From the NCBI GenBank assembly GCA_963829925.1, contig CAWHKQ010000005.1, positions 24,164 to 88,163 on the forward strand: a DNA stretch of 64,000 bases, written 5' to 3'. Below the pieces are notes generated by a model, which ran no database searches, was not told the origin of the DNA, and saw nothing but the letters and a program-made list of their open reading frames with translations. Positions 4,424-24,797 of this stretch are shown here, piece by piece. How positions within the stretch are numbered: the stretch's first letter is position 1; each line of letters begins with the position of its first letter. This DNA is from an uncultured Acidobacteriota bacterium. Lineage in GTDB: Bacteria > Acidobacteriota > Thermoanaerobaculia > UBA5066 > Gp7-AA6. The translations under genes were made by a program, and so were the position numbers.

Positions 4424-5042
4424 GTGAGCACCACCGAAGACAAAGATCTGGTCGCACGCTGCCGTCAAGGTGACGACGAAGCCTGGAGGGAGCTGGTGGA
4501 CCGGTTCGGACAGAAGGTCTATGCGATCGCGTACCACTTCACGATGAAGCGCGAGGACGCCGAGGAGCTGTCCCAGGAGATCTTCCTGAAGGTCTTCGAG
4601 AACCTCCACCGCTACGACGGCGGCTTCCCTCTGGTGGCCTGGATCCTCTCGGTCTCGCGCAACCTGTGCATCGACCGATACCGGCGCCGCAAGCGCGAGA
4701 AGTCCTTCCGTTTCGTCTCCGATGAGAGCCGTGACCGACGCTCCTGAAATCCGACGACGACCCGGCCGAGCATGGCGCTGAAGAAGGAGCGCACACGGCT
4801 TCTCTTCTCGGCGCTGGCGGAGATCCCCGAGGACCTGGCCGAGATCCTCGTTCTCCGGGACCTCAACGGCCTGGCCTACGACGAGATCGGCAAGTCCCTG
4901 GACCTGCCGGACGGCACCGTCAAGTCGCGCCTGTTCCGGGCGCGGGGCGAGGTCGCCCGGCAAGATCCGCGAGCGCCACGAGAGGCGATCCGCGCCGAGC
5001 GCCTTCGCTTCGATCGCGGCGGCCGCGGTGGGAATGGTATGA
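4424..5042 (+). CDS. ECF RNA polymerase sigma factor (one frameshift near 4730)
   Basis: Region 2 [14 protein letters not shown]...[12 protein letters not shown]; region 4 [25 protein letters not shown]. Confidence 0.9.
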
Positions 5043-5869
5043 GCTGCCGCGAGCTCGAGCGACTGTTCCTGGCCGGCGTCCCGGAGGCGGACATCTCCGC
5101 TCACCGCCGACGCGTGCGCCGACTGCGCGCCATCGGGCCGACGCCCTGGACGAAGCGCTCGCGCTGACGTTCTCCCCTGCGCCCCCCCGAGATGAGCCCG
5201 GCGCTTCGCAGAGCCTGATCGAGATTCCGCGCAGACCGTCTCCTGCGAAGGCGCGGAGCCGCTGCTCGCCCTTGCCGTGGAGGAAGAGCTCCCGGCCGCG
5301 GATCAGAAGCGCCTGCAGAGCCACCTCTCCCGCTGCGCCGCGTGCACGGAAGCCGCGGGCGCGCTTCTTTCGGTGCGCGACATGCGGCTCCCCCGGCGCC
5401 GCCATGGCTCGGCCGCGCGGCTGGCCGCCGTCCGCCCGGAAACGAAAAAGAAGTCCTTCTGGCGATCGGCCTTCTCCGGGAAGGCCGTCGTCGGCTACGC
5501 GTACGGGGCCGCTGTCCTCGTCATGCTGCTCGGCTTGAACCCGACCGCGGTCGCCCGCGGGAAGAGTTCGTGAAGCTCGGCGAGAGCACGCGCAACGTCG
5601 TGACGGTCGCCCAGAGCTCGGTCGGGGACCGGCTCGGAGCGTTCCAGGAGAAGGCGATGCGCACGCTGGCCGTCTGGAAGGGCCACGTCGGCGGGTACGG
5701 CCGCGCCGCGGTCTCCAACGCGATCGCTCTCGTGCTCCGGCCCGAGCAGAAGAAGACTCCGCCTCGCCCGCGTCTGGGCAAGGACGGCGGCGTCACCGCC
5801 GACCCCGGCGGCTTCTCCGAGGCGGGCCGGCCGGAGCCGGAACTTTTTGCCTCCCGATTTCGTGTCTAA
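5039..5869 (+). CDS. Zinc-finger (zf-HC2/ZAS) membrane anti-sigma factor (frameshifted)
   Basis: ATGA-type junction with the sigma gene; SCE...[11 protein letters not shown] motif; hydrophobic segment [17 protein letters not shown]. Confidence 0.7.
5840..5869 (+). promoter_or_regulatory. Putative ECF promoter (GAACTTT-N17-GTCTAA) upstream of the membrane protein gene
   Basis: Matches the motif upstream of the sigma gene; followed by RBS GAGGAG and ATG 5902. Confidence 0.4.
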
Positions 5870-6556: not shown

Positions 6557-8299
6557 TCAGCGGCGCTTGAAGTACTTCTCCAGCTCTTCCTCCGACATCG
6601 AGAGAACCACGGGTCTCCCGTGCGGACACGTGAACCGGTCCTCCGTCTTCGACCAGTCCGCGATCAGGCGCCGGATCTCCTCCGGCGCCAGGTGGTACCG
6701 GATCGTGACCGCCGAGCGGCAGGCGATCGAGGCCGCGAGCCGGTTGCGCCGCTCCCCTTCTTCGACGGCCCCGGTGTCGGCCAGCGAGTCGAGCGCCATC
6801 CGCAGCGTCTCGGCCGGGTCTCTTCCCGTGGCCTCCGCCGGCAACGACGCGATCGCGTAGGAGCGGCCCGACATCGGCTCGATCTCGAACCCGGCCGCAA
6901 AGAGATCGTCGATGCGGGCCCCCAGGGTTTCGACTTCCTCCGGCGTCGCCTCGTAGAGCACCCGCATGAGGAGTCTCTGCGACATCACTCTTCCGGAAGC
7001 GATGCGGTCCCGGATCCGCTCGTAGAGCGTCCGCTCGTGCGCGGCGTGCTGGTCGATCACGAGGAGGCCCTCCGGCCCCGTGGCGAGGATGTAGGACTCG
7101 CGGTGCTGCCCGATCGGCAGGATCTCGGCGGGCCGCTTCTCGACCGGAGGCGGAGACGGTTCCGGCGTGCGGCTCACCGGACGGCGGCGAGGGCACGCCC
7201 ACGGGCGGACCCGGCGCCGGCGGCATGGCGAAGGGGTCCCGGTAGGGCGCCGAGGGTTCGGCCACGACGGACCCCGACGGCACCGAGCGCAGCCGCCGCT
7301 CCTCCTTGCCGGCCAGGAGCGCCGAGTTCAGCGCGTGGTAGACGAGCCGGAAGGCCGTTGCCGGCGTCGGCGAAGCGGACCTGCGTCTTGGCCGGTGAGA
7401 CGTTGACGTCCACGGCGCCGGGCTCGGCGGTCAGGAACAGGAAGACCGCGGGGTGGCGGTCGACCCGGATCGCGTCCTTCGACGCCTGGGAGATGGCCCG
7501 GGCGAGCGCCCGGTCCTCGATCGGCCGCCCGTTGACGAACAGATACTGGTACCGCCGGGTCGGAAACGTGATGGAGCCGCGGGTCGCATAGCCCGTCAGC
7601 CTGAGCGGTCCGGACCTGCGCCTCGAAGACCTCCAGCTCGCCGAGCGTCGCCTTGCCGAAGACCTGCAGGATGCGGGCGCCGCGGTCCACCGCCGGCCGG
7701 CGCCTCCAGGGTCTCGCGCGAGTTCGAGCGGAGCGAGAAGGCGACGGCCGGGTTGACCAGCGCGGCCCGGGTGACCGCGGCCGCCACCGCGCGCGCCTCG
7801 GCCTCCTTGGACGCCAGAAACTTGCGCCGGGCGGGTGTGCGCTCGAAGAGGCCCTGGACCAGCACGTCCGTGCCGCGCGGACGCGGGGCGGGCTCCTCCG
7901 CGACGGGCGCCCCGTATTCGAGGCTCAGCCGGATCGCCTCGGGGCTCGTGCCGTCGGAAGTCGTCAGCGTCAGTCGTCGAGACCGACGCGATCGAGGGAA
8001 GCGCCTCGCCGCGGAACCCGTAGGTTCCGACCTGCCGGAGATCTTCGTCGGAGGTGATCTTCGAGGTCGCGTGCCGCTCGAGCGACAGCCGCGCGTCCTC
8101 CGCCGACATGCCCCGAGCCGTCGTCGCGCACCAGGATCCGCTCGATCCCGCCGTTCTCGATCTCGACGTCGATCCGCGTCGCGCCGGCGTCGAGCGCGTT
8201 CTCGATGAGCTCCTTGACGGCCGAAGCCGGCCGCTCGACGACCTCGCCCGCGGCGATGCGGTCGATGACGGGACTCTCGAGACGATGGATCCGGGGCAT
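6557..8299 (-). CDS. mutL: DNA mismatch repair protein MutL (frameshifted)
   Basis: [59 protein letters not shown]. Confidence 0.95.
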
Positions 8300-8395
8300 C
8301 GCGTCGCAGTTTATCTCCGCGCCCGGGCGCGTTGCGCCTCGTGACAATCCCTACACGAGGGACTTGCCGGTGAGCTCTCCAACGAGGAGGCAATC

Positions 8396-11300
8396 GTGAC
8401 AAAGAAATTTGCGGCGGTGCTCCTGCTCCATCTGCTGTCGACTTTCGCCGCGGTCCACGCGCAGAACGGCCCGGACAACGATCCGGATGCGGCCCCGGGA
8501 TACACGAACAGCGTGTTCGACCACGGTCCGGCCGATTCGATCAACCTCTATAACGGTCAGCTCACGATCCCGATTGCGGTCGGCCCGTCCTACCCGATCG
8601 GCCCGAAGCTGCGCTTCCAGCTCTCGCTGGTCTACAGCTCTCGGGTCGACGACTACGGGGCGCCGAAGCCCGGGGCGCAACCGGGAATCCTGGACGGGTA
8701 CATCTACCGTCCGCTCGTCGGCAACTCCTCGCTCGGCATCGGATGGGAGCTCACGCTCGGAGCGATCAAGCCGTGCCGACATGGGATGACGGAGGCCGTC
8801 TGCTACTTCGGTCCCGACGGAAGTCAGCACATGTTCCACCGCGTGCGAGGCAACGGCAAGGTCACGGGCGACGGCAGCCAGCTCTTTCTCAAAGGCTCGG
8901 GCCCCTATGAGATGTGGGACGGCGACGGGAACCGCCACGTCTTCGACAAGCAGGCGAGCGGCTTCGACGACACGGCCGCCCAGGGTTACACCCACGACTT
9001 CGGACGGGGGCGTGACGGCTGGTACCTGGGGTCGCTGACGGATCCCCACGGCAACGGCTACAGCGTCTCCTACTGGACCGGAGGGCATCCTCGCTGGACG
9101 TACGGCGTGCCGACCTGCTCGCCGGCGGTCGCCGGGAACATGCAGATGGCCCCGCCCGCCGGCGTCGGCGGCTGGGTGCCGAAGGAGATCACCCTCCCCT
9201 CGGGCGACAAGGTTCGCGTCAATCGCGGACACAGCGGCTCCGTGGACGGCATGATCCTCTCCTTCGACTTCCCGGTTTTCGCGGCAGGCGCGGCCGGGAT
9301 GCGCACGTGGTCCCTCGCCTACGACACTCCTTACGCTTCCTACCTCCGGCCGTGCGGTCCGGGGACCTCGCTGCCGGTCAATCTGCAGCGCATCAAAGAG
9401 CTGCGGCTTCCGTCGGATCTCGCCGGCTCTCCGAAGTACCAATTCGCGCAGGAGAGTCTCCTGACCCGGCTGACGCTTCCGACGGGCGGCACGATCGAGT
9501 ACTGCTACAGCGAATACACCTTCCACCACGGCCGGGCGGGTTCGGTGACGCCCAACTGCCCGGGGCTGCCCGTCCCGTCAACCCAAACGACGGCGGTCAC
9601 ACCCAATGCGCTGTACTGCGACGGCTCCGGGCTCGCGCCGGAGCCGCGGCCCAACGCCCACGCACAGTGCACGGAGGACAACGAGGCGCGATGGATCGAC
9701 GTCCAGATGGGGGTCCTCCGGCGCACGGAGACCGAGCCCGTGCGGGGACGCGTGGCGACCACCACGTACACGCAGTACGCCTTCCCCTTCGGCGAGGCGG
9801 GCTCGGCCGGCTCTCCGGGAGAGCCCCAGACTTTGACCGTCGTCGTGTCTCCGCCGACCGATCAGAACGCCGCCGGAAGTGCCGGGCGCCGGCGCGCGAA
9901 GGCCACCCTCTTCCTCGCGAGTCCGAGGGTCGTTCAGCCTCCCGGCGGGCCGCGGCCGAGCGTGCCAGGCGACCGTGTCGGCGCCGACGTCGAGGAACGC
10001 GTCTTCGAGACCGATCCGAACCTCCTCAACCCCGGCTCGCCGGCCTGCCCTGGAACGGCGGCCGACGCGCCTTTCTGCGCGAGCAAGTCCGTCCGCACGG
10101 TCAAACGCACGTTCGACTACGACGATCCCGGCAACCTCGAAGGCAACCGTCGCGTGCAGTCGGAGAGGACGATCTTCGGCCCCGGGGCGTGCGGCAGCTG
10201 CGCGCACCACCAGGTGACTTTCACGAACTCCACGGCCGGCTGGGAAGACAACGGCCGCCACTACGAGAACGAAGTCCGTTCCGGCACCCTCGGGAACGAC
10301 GCGCGTACGACGTTCACGGACTGGGCGCCCGCACACTGGATGACCGGGCCGCCCCCTGGGGGGCGCGTGCTACCCAATCTGTTCGTGCAGCGCCGGACGA
10401 CCGACGGCACGTCGGTCCGCGACGAGCTGCTCGAACCGGACGCCGGCAGCGGATTCCTGAAGGGATCGGTCGTCTACGACGACGCCCGAAACCTCGCCTT
10501 CGTCCGCTGCCGCTACTCCGACGACAACGGAAATGTGGACAAGGAGTTCAGCAAGACGGTAGTCGCCGCGACCCGGCCCTCGCTCACGTACTGCTCCGAC
10601 AATCACGGGACGTTTCCGGCATCCGTCGGCCTCGACGGCGACACGTTCGGCAAGGACTACACGTGGCAGAACGGCGAGCTTCTCGGGGCGAGGTGGATCA
10701 ACGGCTCAACCGTCGCCCCCACCTTCCCGACACGCAGCTACGTGAGGAACCTCACGACCGGCTGGGTCCTGTCCTCCAGCGACACGTCGGGCCGGACGAC
10801 CGGCTATTCCTACGACGGCCTCGGGCGCGTCACGCAGATCTCACCCCCCGCTGTTGGAGAGCTGAAAACGTTCGTCTGCTACGAGGGGCCAAACGCCACG
10901 ACGGCGTACCGTGCGTCCTCGGCGCTGGCGTGCCCGGTCGCGGCCAGCCATCCCGGCGCAAAGACGTGGGAGCACTTCGACTACGACGGCCTTGGCCGGA
11001 AAATCCGCGAGAAGAGGCTCCTGCCCGGCGCGCAGGTGTCCAAGCGTTTCACTCTCCGGGATGGGGCGGGGAACGACTTCTTCGCCTCCGAATGGGTCGC
11101 CGATGCCACCCCCGAAACGATCGCCGCGGATCTGCCCACGGCCTGCGTCTTCTCGACCGGCAGCTTCGCCACGGCCCGCCCCTCGGCAGCGCCCGGCACC
11201 TATCGCCTGTGCTTCGATCCCTTCGGCCGTCCCCAACAGATGGTGGGCTCCAGGCACTCGAGCCTCGCGACCGTAGATCGCAAGGACGGTTCGGCCTGGT

Positions 11301-14167
11301 ACAGCGACACGCTGGAGTCCGCCCTGACCTATTGCGTCAACGGCAGCTTCACGAACCTCCAGGCGGCGACCTGCTCGGCAGGAGGGTTCAACGTCTCGAG
11401 AGCCTCTCGCCGAGACGCCTTTGGTCGGACGACGAGCGTCACGGAACCGACCGGCGAGACGACGAGCTACGTCTACGACGTCAACGCGAAGCTCACTCGG
11501 GTCACGCAGGGCTCCCAGACCCGGTCGTTTGCCTTCGACGCCGCCGGGATTCTGCGCTCGCAAACGACGCCGGAGGAGGGGACCGTCAGCTACGACCTGA
11601 TCGGGAGCCTCGGAAACGTGCGCCAGGAAAGACGCCCGGATGGACTCCTCGTCGCGCGAAAGTTCGACTTCGCCGGCCGGGTGGCGCAGGAGGACGCCGG
11701 CGGGCAGAAATACCTGGTCCAGTGCTTCGACGGCGCCGGAGTCTGCGTGGACGGGAGCCCCAACGCCGGAGGCGGCTCGTATCCGGCCGGAAAGATCACA
11801 CGGCGATACGGGTTCAACTACATCCCGACAGCCGCTGCTGTCGTCGATGACTCGTTCGAGTACGGTGACGCCGCGGGCCGGCTGACGAAGCTCACCACGA
11901 CCGCCGGCAACGGAGACCTCGGAACGTCGGTCTCTCAGACCTGGAGCTACGACGGCCTCGGTCTTCCGGCGGTGCACGGCCACCCGCGGGTGACCGGCGC
12001 GTTTCCCGTGTCGTTGACCTATTCGAACGCCCTTCCGACGGGAATCGCGGCGAGCACGGGCGGCCTCGTGACCGGGGCGAGTTATACACCGGCCGCCGGG
12101 CTCGCCTCCTGGACGGCCGGGAACTCCGGAGCGCCCGTCGTCACGGCGATCACGCCGGATCCGACCCTGCTTGCGCGCCCACAGAGCGTCTCCAATCCTC
12201 TCTGGTCGAGCGGGACCTACGCCTACGACGGGGAGGGCAACATCCTCAAGACGGGCGCCGACACGTTCACTTACGACTCGCGCTCGCGCCTTCTTTCGGC
12301 GAAGTTTGCCTCCAACCAGCGCAACTTCACTCACGACCGCTGGGGAAACCTCACGCAGAACGGAGGGACGACCTTCCAGATCGACGCCCTGACGAATCGA
12401 CTCAAGCCCGGCAACCCCGGCGCTCCCGCCTACGACGGCCGGGGGAATCTCACCGCGTGGAACGGAGACGTCATGGCCTACGACGCCCTGGACCGCCAGT
12501 ATCGGAATACCAACGCGGGCTCCGACTGGGTGTACCTCTTCAACGGCGCGGGCGAGCGGATCGTCAAGTTCCCGGCGAAGTTCGGCGTGCTCCGCCGCGA
12601 GATGGCTCGCTACCTCGCCGAAGCCAACGGAATCGCCAGGGGATGGGCGCTGCCCGGCTGCACGCCGACCTTTGCGGACGTCTCGTGCACCGATCCCGAC
12701 GCGCGCCAGATCCAGCTCGTGTACTCCAAAGGCGTGACCGGAGGCTGCAGCACCAATCCCCTCAAATACTGTCCAGATGCTCTTCTGACCCGCGCGCAGA
12801 TGGCTGTCTTCGTCGTCAAGGGTTATAAGCCCGATGGATTCGTTCCGCCCCCCTGCCAGGGCACGTTTCAGGATGTGTCGTGCTCCGGCCCCTACGCGCC
12901 CTTCGCGCCCTGGATCGAACAGCTCCGCCGGGACGGCGTGACCGCGGGTTGCAACGCCTCCCCGCTCCAGTTCTGCCCCGGGAATACCGTCGGCGAGTGG
13001 GAGATGCTCGTCTGGCTCGGCCGGGCCCCGGGGCCGAGTCCCGGAAACGCCTTCTGGTCCGCGTATCGCCCGGTCCCCCGCGGGGCGATCTACACGTGGC
13101 GCGACGAGCAGAACCGCGTCGTCACGGAGGCGGCGGGCGGAACGGCCGGCGCCGCGACCGCGAGCCTCTCTGTCGTGCGTGATAACGTTTTTTTAGGCAA
13201 TCTCCTCGTGGCCTCGTACGTCGCGTCCCCGGCCGGCTGGCAGTTCACGGCTTCCGACCACCTCGGCAGCCCGCGCGTCGTGTGGGACTCGCAGGGGCAG
13301 CTCGTCGAGTCCCACAAGCACTGGCCCTACGGCGAGGACACGAACCCGACCCCGCCTTCCCAGCGTCTCTCGTTCTGCCTGATGGAGCGCGACAACGAAT
13401 CCACCCGCTACTACGACCACGCCCGCACGCACGACCTCGGCCTCGGCCGGTTCCTGTCTCCGGACCGGATCGGCGGCAAACCCGCGGATCCCCAGTCCTG
13501 GAATCGATACGCCTACGCACTCAACAACCCGATGAAGCACATCGATCCGGATGGCCTGCTCACGATCGTGGTGCACGGAACGTATGCTTCGGACAGCCCC
13601 AGCTTCAAAGCCGGAGGCATGGTCTACGAGCAGAGCAAAGCTCTATTCCGCGATCCGAACACCGTGTCTTTCAAATGGTCAGGCGGAAATACGGGCTGGC
13701 AAAGACAACAGGCGGCCGCGGAACTCGGTAAGCTGATCGCAAGTTACAAGTTCGCTCCGGGCGAAAAGCTGAACATCGTCGCACATAGTCACGGCGGCAA
13801 TGTTGTCGTCCCGGCAGCGAACGCGTTGCAGGGACGGTCCGTAGACAATCTCATCACCTTCGGCACTCCGGTTCGCCTGGGGAGCGGACTCGAGCGGACC
13901 ACAAATGTCAACACGTTCATTGCGGTGTCCAATACAGCGGACCTCGTGCAGGTTGCGGGTGGCCTGATGGGTCTTGTTCCGTTCATCGGAGAGTACGGCA
14001 TCGCGGGGCGTGAACAGCCAGGCGCAATCAACGTGCGCATCACGGATGGATCGTCACCGTTCGGCGCTCATTCCGGTGTCTACAAATCCGAGGCAACCTG
14101 GAGGCTTCTCAGCGGTCTCATCGATACGGTCGTGAAACCCATTGAGATCGTGGAGGTTCCGAACTGA
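8396..14167 (+). CDS. Secreted Rhs/YD-repeat polymorphic toxin with internal SLH-like repeats and C-terminal alpha/beta-hydrolase domain
   Basis: Intact 1923-aa ORF after RBS GAGGAGG; N-terminal signal peptide (AVHA/Q); YD repeats (YDGLGRV, YDVNAKL, YDSRSRL); core GRFLSPD...NRYAYALNNPMKHIDPDG; FADV..TRAQMA SLH-like repeats; tip with VHG and AHSHGG. Confidence 0.92.
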   Translation: MTKKFAAVLLLHLLSTFAAVHAQNGPDNDPDAAPGYTNSVFDHGPADSINLYNGQLTIPIAVGPSYPIGPKLRFQLSLVYSSRVDDYGAPKPGAQPGILDGYIYRPLVGNSSLGIGWELTLGAIKPCRHGMTEAVCYFGPDGSQHMFHRVRGNGKVTGDGSQLFLKGSGPYEMWDGDGNRHVFDKQASGFDDTAAQGYTHDFGRGRDGWYLGSLTDPHGNGYSVSYWTGGHPRWTYGVPTCSPAVAGNMQMAPPAGVGGWVPKEITLPSGDKVRVNRGHSGSVDGMILSFDFPVFAAGAAGMRTWSLAYDTPYASYLRPCGPGTSLPVNLQRIKELRLPSDLAGSPKYQFAQESLLTRLTLPTGGTIEYCYSEYTFHHGRAGSVTPNCPGLPVPSTQTTAVTPNALYCDGSGLAPEPRPNAHAQCTEDNEARWIDVQMGVLRRTETEPVRGRVATTTYTQYAFPFGEAGSAGSPGEPQTLTVVVSPPTDQNAAGSAGRRRAKATLFLASPRVVQPPGGPRPSVPGDRVGADVEERVFETDPNLLNPGSPACPGTAADAPFCASKSVRTVKRTFDYDDPGNLEGNRRVQSERTIFGPGACGSCAHHQVTFTNSTAGWEDNGRHYENEVRSGTLGNDARTTFTDWAPAHWMTGPPPGGRVLPNLFVQRRTTDGTSVRDELLEPDAGSGFLKGSVVYDDARNLAFVRCRYSDDNGNVDKEFSKTVVAATRPSLTYCSDNHGTFPASVGLDGDTFGKDYTWQNGELLGARWINGSTVAPTFPTRSYVRNLTTGWVLSSSDTSGRTTGYSYDGLGRVTQISPPAVGELKTFVCYEGPNATTAYRASSALACPVAASHPGAKTWEHFDYDGLGRKIREKRLLPGAQVSKRFTLRDGAGNDFFASEWVADATPETIAADLPTACVFSTGSFATARPSAAPGTYRLCFDPFGRPQQMVGSRHSSLATVDRKDGSAWYSDTLESALTYCVNGSFTNLQAATCSAGGFNVSRASRRDAFGRTTSVTEPTGETTSYVYDVNAKLTRVTQGSQTRSFAFDAAGILRSQTTPEEGTVSYDLIGSLGNVRQERRPDGLLVARKFDFAGRVAQEDAGGQKYLVQCFDGAGVCVDGSPNAGGGSYPAGKITRRYGFNYIPTAAAVVDDSFEYGDAAGRLTKLTTTAGNGDLGTSVSQTWSYDGLGLPAVHGHPRVTGAFPVSLTYSNALPTGIAASTGGLVTGASYTPAAGLASWTAGNSGAPVVTAITPDPTLLARPQSVSNPLWSSGTYAYDGEGNILKTGADTFTYDSRSRLLSAKFASNQRNFTHDRWGNLTQNGGTTFQIDALTNRLKPGNPGAPAYDGRGNLTAWNGDVMAYDALDRQYRNTNAGSDWVYLFNGAGERIVKFPAKFGVLRREMARYLAEANGIARGWALPGCTPTFADVSCTDPDARQIQLVYSKGVTGGCSTNPLKYCPDALLTRAQMAVFVVKGYKPDGFVPPPCQGTFQDVSCSGPYAPFAPWIEQLRRDGVTAGCNASPLQFCPGNTVGEWEMLVWLGRAPGPSPGNAFWSAYRPVPRGAIYTWRDEQNRVVTEAAGGTAGAATASLSVVRDNVFLGNLLVASYVASPAGWQFTASDHLGSPRVVWDSQGQLVESHKHWPYGEDTNPTPPSQRLSFCLMERDNESTRYYDHARTHDLGLGRFLSPDRIGGKPADPQSWNRYAYALNNPMKHIDPDGLLTIVVHGTYASDSPSFKAGGMVYEQSKALFRDPNTVSFKWSGGNTGWQRQQAAAELGKLIASYKFAPGEKLNIVAHSHGGNVVVPAANALQGRSVDNLITFGTPVRLGSGLERTTNVNTFIAVSNTADLVQVAGGLMGLVPFIGEYGIAGREQPGAINVRITDGSSPFGAHSGVYKSEATWRLLSGLIDTVVKPIEIVEVPN

Positions 14168-14500
14168 TGGCCGAACCTCCGGCTGTTGCCCGAGCCGACC
14201 GGCTCCTGATCTTCCAAATGACGCTTCTCGCGCAGATCGTCCTCTATCGCGAGATTCTGAGGCTGTTCCTCAAGGCGACGGGGACATGGAGCGATGTTGG
14301 CAGTAATTTCATGGCGTTCTGGCTCCTGGCGGTCGTTCCGGGGGCGGCGCTCCTCGCCGCCCTTGGTGCCTGGAGTCACCGATGGGTCCGAGCTCAGCAC
14401 CCCGACCGAGCCCGAGAGTGGTTTTTCGGGGCGTCTTGCCGTCAACGCAGCCCTCCTCGCCCTCTCGCTGATCGTCTATTCGCGAAATTTTCATGAATGA
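14167..14500 (+). CDS. Putative immunity protein, about 3 TM helices (probable 1-nt frameshift near 14430)
   Basis: Start overlaps Rhs stop (TGATG); hydrophobic helices; alternative frame ends LAVNAALLALSLIVYSRNFHE at 14500. Confidence 0.6.
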
Positions 14501-14592
14501 GCTGGGCTCGACGGCTCGTCACCGCATGTGACGCGAGCCCGCGAGCGATGACCAAGCGCCCGGCGCCCTCAGCCGTCCTTGCGCGAACTGAT

Positions 14593-14615
14593 TAGACTAG
14601 ACTAGACTTAGTCTA
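14593..14615 (+). promoter_or_regulatory. Probable TA operator/promoter: (TAGAC)x3 plus palindrome TAGAC-TTA-GTCTA abutting the ATG
   Basis: Seen directly at the antitoxin start. Confidence 0.55.
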
Positions 14616-14851
14616 TGCGAATCGTAAAGGTCCACGAAGCCAAGACGCATCTCTCCCGGTTGCTCGAGCGAGTCGAGAAGGGCGAAGAAATCCTGATCGC
14701 GCGCGGCAGGGTTCCCGTAGCCCGACTCGTGCCGGTCACCGCTCAGCCGCGCCGGCCCGGGCGGCTGAAGGGGAGGATCCGGGTCGGGCGGGCGTTCGAC
14801 AAACCTCTTCCCACGGATTTGCTCGCGGCGTTCCGAGGCGAACGGGGTTGA
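14615..14851 (+). CDS. Phd/YefM family antitoxin
   Basis: VKVHEAKTHLSRLLERVEKGEEILIAR..PVARLVP. Confidence 0.92.
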   Translation: MRIVKVHEAKTHLSRLLERVEKGEEILIARGRVPVARLVPVTAQPRRPGRLKGRIRVGRAFDKPLPTDLLAAFRGERG

Positions 14852-15228
14852 GGCTCCTCCTCGACACGCACGCCTTTCTCTGGTGGCTGCAGGACAGCCC
14901 TCGCCTGGGACGTGAGGCACGCCGCGCGATGTCAGACATGCAATCGATCATCCACGTCAGCGCCGCGAGCGTCTGGGAACTCGCCATCAAGACGGCCCTG
15001 GGGAGGCTCCACGTCGACGGGGCCGACATTCCGGACGAGATCGCGGCCAATGGGTTCGTCGAGCTCCCGGTCGGCTCGCGGCATGCGTGGCACGCGGGGG
15101 GACTGCCCCGGCACCATGACGACCCGTTCGACCGAATATTGATCGCCCAGGCTCAGCTCGAGGAATTGACGCTCGTCACCCACGATCCCGCCTTCGGGAA
15201 GTACAAAGTCCCGCTCCTGTCGGCCTGA
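14848..15228 (+). CDS. vapC: PIN-domain VapC toxin
   Basis: LLLDTHAFLW, SAASVWELAIK, HHDDPFDRILIAQA, LVTHD; 4-nt overlap with antitoxin. Confidence 0.92.
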   Translation: MRLLLDTHAFLWWLQDSPRLGREARRAMSDMQSIIHVSAASVWELAIKTALGRLHVDGADIPDEIAANGFVELPVGSRHAWHAGGLPRHHDDPFDRILIAQAQLEELTLVTHDPAFGKYKVPLLSA

Positions 15229-24032: not shown

Positions 24033-24797
24033 TCAGGAGGGCTGCGGGCGGCCGATGGCGCCTGCAGCCACCTCTTCCAGGACCCGCTGCGATTTCAGCT
24101 CGTGGCCGAGGAAGTGGCGGCGGGCGCGGCGCGCCACGCTGGCGATCTCCGCGATTCCCTCCGGCCGGGAGGCGGGATCCAGCGGCCCCGACAGAAACGC
24201 GGCCAGAGTCTCGTGCGCTTCGGGCGTCAGCCGCAGCGTCTCGCCGCTTCGACACTCGGGTCCGACGAAGCCGGGCCGCCGCTCGTCGAAGAGGATCGGG
24301 CCTTCCGGCTCCAGCGCGCGGCCGCAGCCGGCGCACTCGCGGGGCGACGGGAAGAGGCCGGAGAGCTTCAGGATCCAGACGTCGAAGTAGGCCGCGGCCA
24401 GAGCCGCGGGAGCGTCGCGGAAGAGCGCGTCCATGGCGTGCCGCGCCAGCCGGTAGAAGGGCTCGGCCGGGTCCGACTCGGAGACGAACGTCTCCAGGCT
24501 CTCGGCGAACGCCGAGAGGAGCAGTCCCCGGTCGAGGTCCTTCGAGAGGGCGAAGGACGGCCGGATCGGGTCGACGGCGTTGAGGTTGACGAGCTCGCGC
24601 CCCTCCTTCTCGAAGTACACGACCCGGGCCTCGGTCATCGGCTCCAGGGCTCCCGAAAAAATGCTGCGCGAGCGTCGGGCCCCGCGGGCGACTCCCCGCT
24701 TCTTGCCGGCGTCGCGGGTCAGAAACGAGACGATGCGATCGGTCTCGCGCAGCGCGTAGGTGCCGAGGATGAAGGATTCCGAGGAGTGGAGGCGCAC
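24033..24797 (-). CDS. recO: DNA repair protein RecO
   Basis: ETDRIVSFLTRDAGKKRGVARGARRS, CAGC...C zinc motif, HELKS; upstream of glyQ. Confidence 0.92.
   Translation of the reverse strand: MRLHSSESFILGTYALRETDRIVSFLTRDAGKKRGVARGARRSRSIFSGALEPMTEARVVYFEKEGRELVNLNAVDPIRPSFALSKDLDRGLLLSAFAESLETFVSESDPAEPFYRLARHAMDALFRDAPAALAAAYFDVWILKLSGLFPSPRECAGCGRALEPEGPILFDERRPGFVGPECRSGETLRLTPEAHETLAAFLSGPLDPASRPEGIAEIASVARRARRHFLGHELKSQRVLEEVAAGAIGRPQPS

Follow-up and report, generated by a model that had tools for sequence, protein, structure and literature searches.

How an Rhs toxin cage could be exported, held, and used by a bacterium with two membranes and apparently no type VI secretion system (T6SS) is the question raised by a locus in a 64,000-nucleotide stretch of DNA, hereafter the window, from an uncultured Acidobacteriota bacterium (contig CAWHKQ010000005.1 of assembly GCA_963829925.1, forward-strand positions 24,164 to 88,163). 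The locus comprises a long gene for an Rhs/YD-shell protein (P0001) and a small membrane-protein gene (P0002) that overlaps its end. Our reading, to which we give a probability of about 0.7, is that P0001 encodes a Sec-exported, T6SS-independent Rhs polymorphic toxin of a lipopolysaccharide (LPS)-diderm acidobacterium, probably of the Thermoanaerobaculia to judge by where its nearest homologues come from, in which the cage is tied to the envelope by an S-layer homology (SLH) domain, the tip is lipase-like, and the neighboring gene provides a membrane immunity protein. The reading starts from the anatomy of the gene and the identities of its domains, from a tip that is polymorphic among homologues, from a genus in which no T6SS sheath gene was found, and from an SLH insert that co-occurs with an SLH/CsaB repertoire.

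Anatomy of the Rhs gene

The features of the locus, all on the forward strand, are as follows (window coordinates, with the basis of each assignment in parentheses).

8384..8390, +, Shine-Dalgarno-like GAGGAGG, 5 nucleotides 5' of the GTG start (read off the sequence)
8396..14167, +, Rhs/YD-shell polymorphic toxin gene P0001, 1923 residues, intact, GTG start (open reading frame and family matches)
8396..8461, +, predicted Sec leader of the signal peptidase I (SPI) type, residues 1-22, cleavage expected after AVHA (heuristic)
8462..12580, +, YD/RHS shell, residues 23-1395 (RHS_repeat and YD_repeat matches; family profile)
12581..13081, +, inserted SLH module, residues 1396-1562 (tblastn, Pfam matches of orthologues, profile, and fold model)
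13082..13555, +, last shell strands and Rhs-associated core, the latter at residues 1644-1720 (TIGR03696 match)
13556..14164, +, toxin tip, residues 1721-1923 (203 residues), a predicted minimal alpha/beta hydrolase (fold model; weak Pfam matches)
14167..14496, with the homologous frame running to 14500, +, candidate immunity gene P0002, small membrane protein, 109 residues as read (position and homologues)

A preliminary description of the locus, made from the sequence alone, had reported an intact 1923-residue open reading frame (ORF) with YD repeats and an Rhs core ending in PMKHIDPDG/L, preceded by a signal peptide, interrupted by SLH-like repeats, and terminated by a hydrolase tip of roughly 203 residues, and the comparisons given here agree with this description, for the signal peptide on heuristic grounds. 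Whole P0001 matched RHS_repeat in Pfam (PF05593, E 4.6e-20) and YD_repeat in NCBIfam (TIGR01643, E 6.5e-17), and the NCBIfam model Rhs_assc_core (TIGR03696) covered residues 1644-1721 with E 1e-14. The C-terminal end of the core reads NPMKHIDPDG (1711-1720) and is followed by L1721. P0001 possesses the core residues R1677, D1680, and D1690; R1677, D1690, D1717, and G1720 were invariant in all 30 aligned family members. DPDG (1717-1720) marks the presumed autocleavage site before L1721. A profile of the Rhs family, searched against solved structures, matched RhsA (7q97), RhsP (8h8a), and teneurin-like proteins (TLPs); a phmmer search of PDB sequences with the whole protein returned the RhsP core as its sole match, so the family profile was needed for more. 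The N-terminal part (residues 24-780) fell among RHS-type clusters only in the ESM Atlas, a result treated as a lead, and revealed no extra delivery domain.

P0001 was the single Rhs protein found in its own genome by tblastn with the whole protein. The searches yielded 328 homologues. Of the 20 other genomes of the genus, 19 have a full-length homologue, and its place in the chromosome is conserved. The homologue counts that follow (tips, inserts, and leaders) are based on 120 listed homologues of these 328.

The SLH insert

The SLH module could be delimited from related loci that lack it. Of 301 sampled genomes from the class, the unpublished genome G104 among them, 110 had some match to P0001 at E ≤ 1e-20, many of them only partial (SLH or core). 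At no fewer than 15 loci of other genera, the alignment stopped at query residues 1388-1397 and resumed at residues 1546-1567 on adjoining DNA; in genome G036, for example, the two alignment pieces abut at 481421-481426. Residues ~1396-1562 therefore represent an insertion into a shell loop, that is, a clean indel.

The module was present in 90 of the 120 listed homologues, in 83 of which it sits at the position seen in the window, a median of 158 residues before the tip. Six members of another clade (P0092, P0094, P0095, P0097, P0099, and P0120) carry it ∼430 to 445 residues before the tip, and the remaining one, P0114, is a distant relative of 2910 residues that bears NHL, resembles TLPs, and has its SLH near the N-terminus. 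These distributions suggest that SLH was repeatedly recruited by the YD-shell toxins of this group; under the wider anchoring proposal considered below, its occurrence at three different positions argues for selection for wall tethering of the cages. Two distant Rhs proteins with the same type of tip contain Ig-like or DUF11 domains among their RHS repeats (P0163, residues 1991-2093, and P0173, residues 1659-1780); domain insertion into Rhs shells may be more general.

Several comparisons converge on the identity of the insert. By tblastn, residues 1398-1545 exhibited 35 to 45% identity to dozens of sites in the same genome, with E down to 3e-25, and the sites matched in this way are those where the Pfam SLH family (PF00395) scores above its cut-off. 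PF00395 itself was matched by 22 of 23 orthologous inserts from related genomes (E ≤ 1; best E 4.5e-14). A profile of the orthologous inserts, compared with solved structures, matched Sap (1.4e-13) and SbsB (1.5e-11) at their SLH domains. The AlphaFold2 (AF2) model of the insert had a pLDDT of 88.3, and the top 15 chains returned by Foldseek were all SLH domains of Sap or SpaA (TM 0.54-0.71 over ∼150 columns), which gives the model the three-pronged spindle fold seen in experimental SLH structures. The model comprises five helices, with a leading core helix followed by two full, Cys-rich SLH repeats (FADV at 1426 and FQDV at 1491). From these sequence and model comparisons, we take residues 1396-1562 to be a genuine SLH module.

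The core helices of the insert open with LRRE (1399), TRAQ (1465), and VGEW (1532). The equivalent motifs of SpaA are TRAE, TVEE, and TRAQ, whose Arg residues make contact with pyruvate on the wall polymer (PMC6081394; here and below, PMC6081394, PMC3482391, PMC10433427, and 10.1101/2025.11.11.687626 are cited for the accessible portions of their texts). With LRRE and TRAQ, the insert has kept two Arg-bearing motifs, and insert residues R11, R12, and R77 were invariant in 23 of 23 inserts. The third motif, VGEW, is without Arg, like TVEE of SpaA (PMC6081394). Eight Cys residues, four per repeat, are conserved in the insert, which is unusual for SLH, and they recur in the other SLH proteins of the genome.

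SLH proteins and CsaB in the host and its family

The genome that harbors P0001 is rich in SLH domains, with 64 matches in 48 reading frames (contigs C4, C10, C12, C13, C15, and C16; e.g., C13:155646-158048). In a Pfam scan of ten of these frames (L040-L049), SLH was matched in nine and another domain was present in five, the domains being beta-helix/NosD (two), IPT/TIG (two), an M12 protease, a P-domain, and a beta-propeller. SLH lies at or near the C-terminus in the scanned frames. To judge from their sequences, the SLH frames appear to be a monoderm-style anchored exoproteome in an LPS diderm, and a literature search combining Thermoanaerobaculia with SLH found no paper on a large SLH-anchored exoproteome in LPS-diderm Acidobacteriota. 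The preliminary description had proposed looking for csaB, and a gene for a CsaB-like pyruvyltransferase is present (G000:C13:151898-152803), 3 to 6 kb from SLH genes.

The same association extends through the family. Among its 46 genomes, which include the unpublished G317, 18 had 9 to 119 SLH matches, one had a single match, and 27 had none. Strong matches to the pyruvyltransferase occurred in 16 of the 18 SLH-rich genomes versus one of the 28 others, although the cut-offs for "SLH-rich" (at least nine matches) and "strong" (E ≤ 1e-25) were set after the data had been seen. The pyruvyltransferase gene adjoins SLH genes in six genomes, namely the present one and G064, G068, G319, G321, and G326. 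Even within single genera of the family, SLH and the CsaB-like gene are present or absent together. All nine examined genomes with an insert-bearing Rhs protein were SLH-rich, compared to two of the six that have only an insert-less Rhs protein; because the genomes are related and not independent, such counts are suggestive only.

This distribution bears on an alternative in which the SLH domain serves as a targeting module, so that a released cage would use it to bind the pyruvylated wall polymer of related targets and killing would be limited to SLH/CsaB-bearing kin. As SLH and CsaB are all-or-none among close relatives, cells with the ligand would form a sharply bounded group of targets, and polymorphic toxins usually act on relatives, according to the accessible part of PMC10433427. 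The ligand in a diderm is, furthermore, expected under the outer membrane, where it would fit neither self-display nor easy targeting. The layout of the scanned SLH frames, half of them with another domain and with the SLH at or near the C-terminus, is nevertheless the classic one of self-anchored proteins, and insert-bearing Rhs proteins were encountered only in genomes with the SLH system, as a self-anchor requires, although targeting predicts the same pattern. We regard the targeting alternative as quite unlikely and retain the self-anchored cage as our preferred reading. A wider proposal, that an LPS-diderm lineage runs monoderm-style SLH/CsaB anchoring for a large exoproteome and has spliced the anchor into the wall of an Rhs cage, is possible but doubtful.

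Leader, host envelope, and secretion genes

The N-terminus of P0001 has the order expected of a Sec substrate, with basic MTKK, a hydrophobic run, and AVHA followed by QNG, and it has no lipobox Cys. A mature start of the form Q-x-GPD was located within the first 60 residues in 74 of the 120 listed homologues. In 72 of these 74 it is preceded by a basic-then-hydrophobic leader of 15 to 45 residues, with A or G at position -1 in nearly all. These sequence features make Sec/SPI export of the Rhs protein likely.

BamA, LpxC, and two secretins were found in the same genome, and the host is therefore an LPS diderm, in keeping with the diderm organism envisaged in the preliminary description. That description had also seen no PAAR or transporter partner and had suggested a check for T6SS. 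TssC and PAAR were not found in this genome, which is rated 57% complete, and TssC was detected in none of 26 genomes of the genus, 13 of which are at least 90% complete. The negative result for T6SS rests mainly on the genus because the genome itself is only 57% complete. No secretion, transport, or chaperone gene adjoins the Rhs gene.

The C-terminal tip

The tip contains the nucleophile elbow AHSHGG at residue 1796. Its AF2 model, built with 12 aligned tips, had a pLDDT of 84.9, and the best matching folds were those of LipA from Bacillus pumilus and Bacillus subtilis (E 2e-6 to 1e-5, TMt 0.63-0.71, 16-22% identity). The candidate catalytic triad consists of S1798, D1849, and H1892. S1798 (S78 of the tip) was invariant in all 12 aligned tips; D1849 and H1892 are conserved in the nine tips of the LTIVVHGT subtype, to which that of the window belongs, with His in eight of the nine and Ala in L017. 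Three tips of the VAVGFTGLGNS subtype do not align at the D1849 and H1892 columns. Our best guess for the substrate is a lipid.

Against 1.84 billion representative sequences, a profile of the tip gave 5904 proteins with E ≤ 1e-3, of which 1059 reached E ≤ 1e-10. Among the 150 matches listed, 24 exceed 1000 residues, and in all 24 the tip is at the C-terminal end. RHS repeats were present in six of 10 examined proteins, two of the six also having SpvB and FG-GAP domains. The C-terminal placement and the RHS repeats mark the tip as a recurrent Rhs-borne toxin module.

Polymorphism of the tip is evident within the family. The sequences of the 120 listed homologues diverge immediately after DPxG, and their tips form 50 BLAST clusters. 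The largest cluster, with 53 members, is of the hydrolase type, another has 13 members, and HNH- and DUF4157-bearing tips also occur; hydrolase tips are over-represented because the query included the tip. The 90 insert-bearing homologues alone carry tips from 32 clusters. The preliminary description had named a uniform C-terminus among homologues as evidence against a toxin system, and what was found instead is the same architecture with many different tips. The GC content at third codon positions was high in shell (0.86), insert (0.83), and core (0.87) but fell to 0.685 for the tip, and the downstream gene had 0.655. This drop fits a swapped tip-immunity cassette.

The downstream gene and its surroundings

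P0002 starts one base inside the stop codon of the Rhs gene (TGATG). It matched no Pfam or NCBIfam family. Two homologues were recovered: one follows the tip in L011 (108 residues, 47% identity; it shares the central motif and has three hydrophobic segments), and the other, P0123 (110 residues, 77% identity over 88 residues), was the single match in a word-indexed search. The longest contigs of P0123 and of P0004, an Rhs protein that is 87% identical, are equal in length, which suggests that the two are neighbors. Intact homologues of this type have three hydrophobic segments and 108 to 110 residues. Behind other subtypes of the tip lie other small three-helix membrane genes (L012, L017, and L018; L013, L019, and L022). 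From its position and its covariation with the tip, we tentatively infer that P0002 has an immunity role.

A second kind of downstream gene was observed, for a secreted protein of ∼190 to 200 residues with a VWSPDG motif. It follows the tip in L011 (7592-8197), L015, L016, L017, L018, and L033; in L019 it is further downstream, beyond the small membrane gene. In L017 and L018 the protein forms a fusion with a membrane part of three helices; the genome studied here lacks it. This secreted protein may be the real immunity protein or a second one.

Some features of the window concern the quality of its assembly. The gene for an extracytoplasmic function (ECF) sigma factor at 4424-5167 (+) is split into ORFs for region 2 and region 4, and mutL at 6557-8109 (-) is split into two ORFs. 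The genome is rated as 57% complete despite its 3.8 Mb in 16 contigs. Together, these observations suggest that the assembly is indel-prone, and an assembly indel in P0002 is therefore plausible. A search of sequencing runs found no RNA run among the carriers of words from the window, and the shares amounted to at most 0.16 of the sampled words. Contigs from four runs, aligned to 13400-14900, left 14420-14470 without coverage.

The upstream neighbors of the locus are mutL and the genes for the ECF sigma factor and its accompanying anti-sigma factor; downstream are a Phd/PIN (VapBC) toxin-antitoxin pair, HupE, and an amidohydrolase. The Phd/YefM antitoxin gene (14615-14851, +, E 1.7e-10) directly follows the Rhs cassette and is overlapped by the gene for the PIN-domain toxin (14848-15228, +, E 2.2e-16). 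In L011, the place of this pair is taken by the ∼190- to 200-residue secreted protein.

Proposed mode of action and its weighing

In the mechanism that we infer, the leader would carry the Rhs protein across the inner membrane, where the YD repeats would fold into a closed shell around the C-terminal 203-residue tip and the Rhs core would cleave behind DPDG (1720), so that the tip would lie unattached within the shell. The SLH domain in the shell loop, ∼158 residues before the tip, would bind a pyruvylated, peptidoglycan-linked polymer made with the CsaB-like enzyme and so tie the loaded cage to the envelope, as presumed for the many other SLH-bearing exoproteins of the lineage. Once it reached a neighboring cell by whatever way such a toxin may take, the tip, a putative lid-less Ser-Asp-His hydrolase of the Bacillus LipA type, would most likely attack membrane lipids from the periplasmic side, whereas the overlapping small membrane protein would shield the producer.

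Several observations weigh against this reading. The insert of the window itself had no match to PF00395 at E ≤ 10 or E ≤ 1, and it consists of two full repeats plus a helix, not three tandem SLH repeats; its model aligns over ∼150 of the 165 residues of three-repeat SLH domains. The structure models are of the insert alone and of the tip alone, and placement of the insert outside the shell is a presumption. For the tip, no hydrolase family of Pfam scored above its curated cut-off (DUF7379, E 0.0022; PGAP1, 0.006; Tle3, 0.017; Lipase_2, 0.17). P0002, compared with P0123, changes frame near 14431-14436, and its homologous last ∼22 residues are encoded in an ORF that ends at 14500. In L015, the locus with the most similar tip (56% identity), there is no gene of the P0002 type, and the gene for the ∼190- to 200-residue secreted protein stands in its place. 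Thus, of the coupled membrane gene put forward in the preliminary description, the one-base overlap and the homologues in L011 and P0123 speak for the coupling, and the frame break and the absence at L015 speak against it.

The same weaknesses of the tip and of P0002 lend themselves to a reading without interbacterial competition, in which a lipase or esterase for nutrition, predation, or use against a eukaryotic target is stored in the shell or delivered by it and the downstream gene is unrelated. A tip outside the established hydrolase families and a familyless, frame-broken downstream gene that is missing beside the most similar tip would suit it. Such a function is difficult to reconcile, however, with a conserved shell that carries tips of 50 clusters, among them HNH nucleases and one of the DUF4157 type, or with the different small genes that follow different tips and the compositional break shared by the tip and the downstream gene. 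Variable tips, varying small genes, and a shared compositional break are together the signature of toxin-immunity cassettes, and we consider the non-interbacterial reading very improbable.

The envelope of the host poses the other difficulty for the tethered toxin. No route across the outer membrane was identified for P0001, the two secretins in the genome not having been linked to the Rhs gene, and a Sec-exported SLH protein in a diderm would by default be periplasmic rather than on the surface. SLH domains of known diderms sit in the periplasm. The cage could, accordingly, be a periplasmic store, bound beneath the outer membrane to the wall of the cell that makes it and freed only by lysis, in vesicles, or through outer-membrane exchange, which would make it a public or altruistic weapon. 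An LPS-diderm host, a protein with a Sec leader only and neither an outer-membrane translocation signal nor a partner gene, and the appearance of the SLH entry of OmpM1 (8bz2) among the weak Foldseek matches of the insert are all compatible with such a store. It would require, on the other hand, that all ∼48 SLH frames be periplasmic, one with an M12 protease among them, and a surface location is assumed for the large Rhs proteins of Myxococcus that have signal sequences (accessible text of PMC10433427). We judge the periplasmic store to be unlikely, and the SLH-tethered, Sec-exported toxin remains the reading that we prefer.

Under the wider proposal, the location of the ligand would decide what has been found. 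With a ligand beneath the outer membrane, the cage would act as a toxin depot held in the periplasm by peptidoglycan, and Rhs proteins have not been described as being delivered in that way; with a ligand on the cell surface, the protein would represent a new kind of surface display in diderms. How Rhs cages without a T6SS, Tc, or type VII secretion system partner reach their targets is an open question, and the delivery of TLPs is stated to be unknown in the accessible text of 10.1101/2025.11.11.687626. This family offers a tractable handle on the problem, with a defined anchor domain of known ligand class, a clean indel between sister genera, and an anchor that occurs in step with an SLH/CsaB repertoire that is itself all-or-none. 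In practical terms the gain is modest: a hydrolase tip that is new, widespread, and borne by Rhs proteins, together with small membrane proteins as immunity candidates.

Comparison with known systems

WapA of Bacillus subtilis is Sec-exported and wall-associated and is paired with the immunity protein WapI; its host is monoderm, its N-terminal wall-binding repeats are not SLH, and its tips are nucleases. P0001 has in common with it a Sec leader (predicted in P0001), a module for wall binding (putative in P0001), the YD/Rhs shell, a DPxG core boundary, a polymorphic C-terminal toxin, an immunity neighbor (a candidate in the present case), and independence of T6SS. It differs from WapA in having the SLH anchor inside the shell, an LPS-diderm host, and a predicted hydrolase tip. 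Membership of the WapA type was rejected, as P0001 had no Pfam match of the CWB2 type and the host has BamA and LpxC.

Rhs4 and Rhs5 of Myxococcus xanthus are large Rhs proteins with signal sequences that act without T6SS in kin discrimination (PMC10433427). A diderm host, a signal sequence, the lack of T6SS, and polymorphic tips are shared with P0001 (PMC10433427). The Myxococcus proteins are ∼4000 residues long and prophage-borne, and SLH is not reported for them in the accessible text; P0001, in contrast, has ∼1900 residues, a conserved chromosomal site, and an SLH module.

Bacterial TLPs likewise enclose polymorphic toxins in YD shells, and SLH modules have been noted on TLPs; they are defined by an FN-plug, an NHL propeller, and a YD shell, as a rule joined by TIP and TTR, and their adhesion modules are N-terminal (accessible text of 10.1101/2025.11.11.687626). 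The Rhs family profile matched TLP chains (PDB 9pt5 and 9ifo) at 4e-23 and 7e-21, in the shell and core only. P0001 had no NHL or TTR match at E ≤ 0.1, and it was not assigned to the TLPs, given that limited match. Unlike the N-terminal adhesion modules of TLPs, the SLH of P0001 is inside the shell.

The T6SS effectors RhsA (7q97), RhsP (8h8a), and Tse5 (8cp6), which gave the best matches among solved structures, share the shell and the Rhs-associated core. Their N-termini are linked to PAAR or VgrG and lack a signal peptide, unlike P0001 with its predicted leader and without PAAR. Membership in this class was rejected on the genome-level negatives reported above (PAAR and TssC not found in the genome; TssC in 0 of 26 genomes of the genus).

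At the level of the tip, LipA is likewise a lid-less alpha/beta hydrolase of ∼200 residues with an A-H-S-x-G-G elbow, but identity to it is only 16 to 22%. By sequence, the tip was not placed in the class 2 lipases or the Tle families, all matches being below the curated cut-offs. Lipase-like alpha/beta-hydrolase toxins are known in polymorphic systems, where Tox-ABhydrolase-1 is mainly linked to T6SS (PMC3482391).

The literature also bears on how much of the architecture is new. Zhang et al. 2012 listed signal-peptide toxins with RHS repeats, exported by Sec and the type II secretion system, across all bacteria, and SLH is not mentioned in the accessible text of that paper (PMC3482391). In a paper on cellulosomes, Rhs-like modules and SLH modules occur in different scaffoldins (PMC6780208). 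We found no paper that describes SLH inside an Rhs shell or an SLH-bearing Rhs protein in diderms; the extended data of the TLP preprint may list SLH-bearing examples. The preliminary description had presented the locus as a new toxin system of uncharacterized architecture, which overstates its novelty. Sec-dependent and signal-sequence Rhs proteins have been catalogued (PMC3482391 and PMC10433427, accessible portions), those of Myxococcus act independently of T6SS, and SLH has been noted on TLPs; the locus is therefore not a new system. What looks new is the position of the SLH domain inside the shell, and its occurrence there in a diderm.

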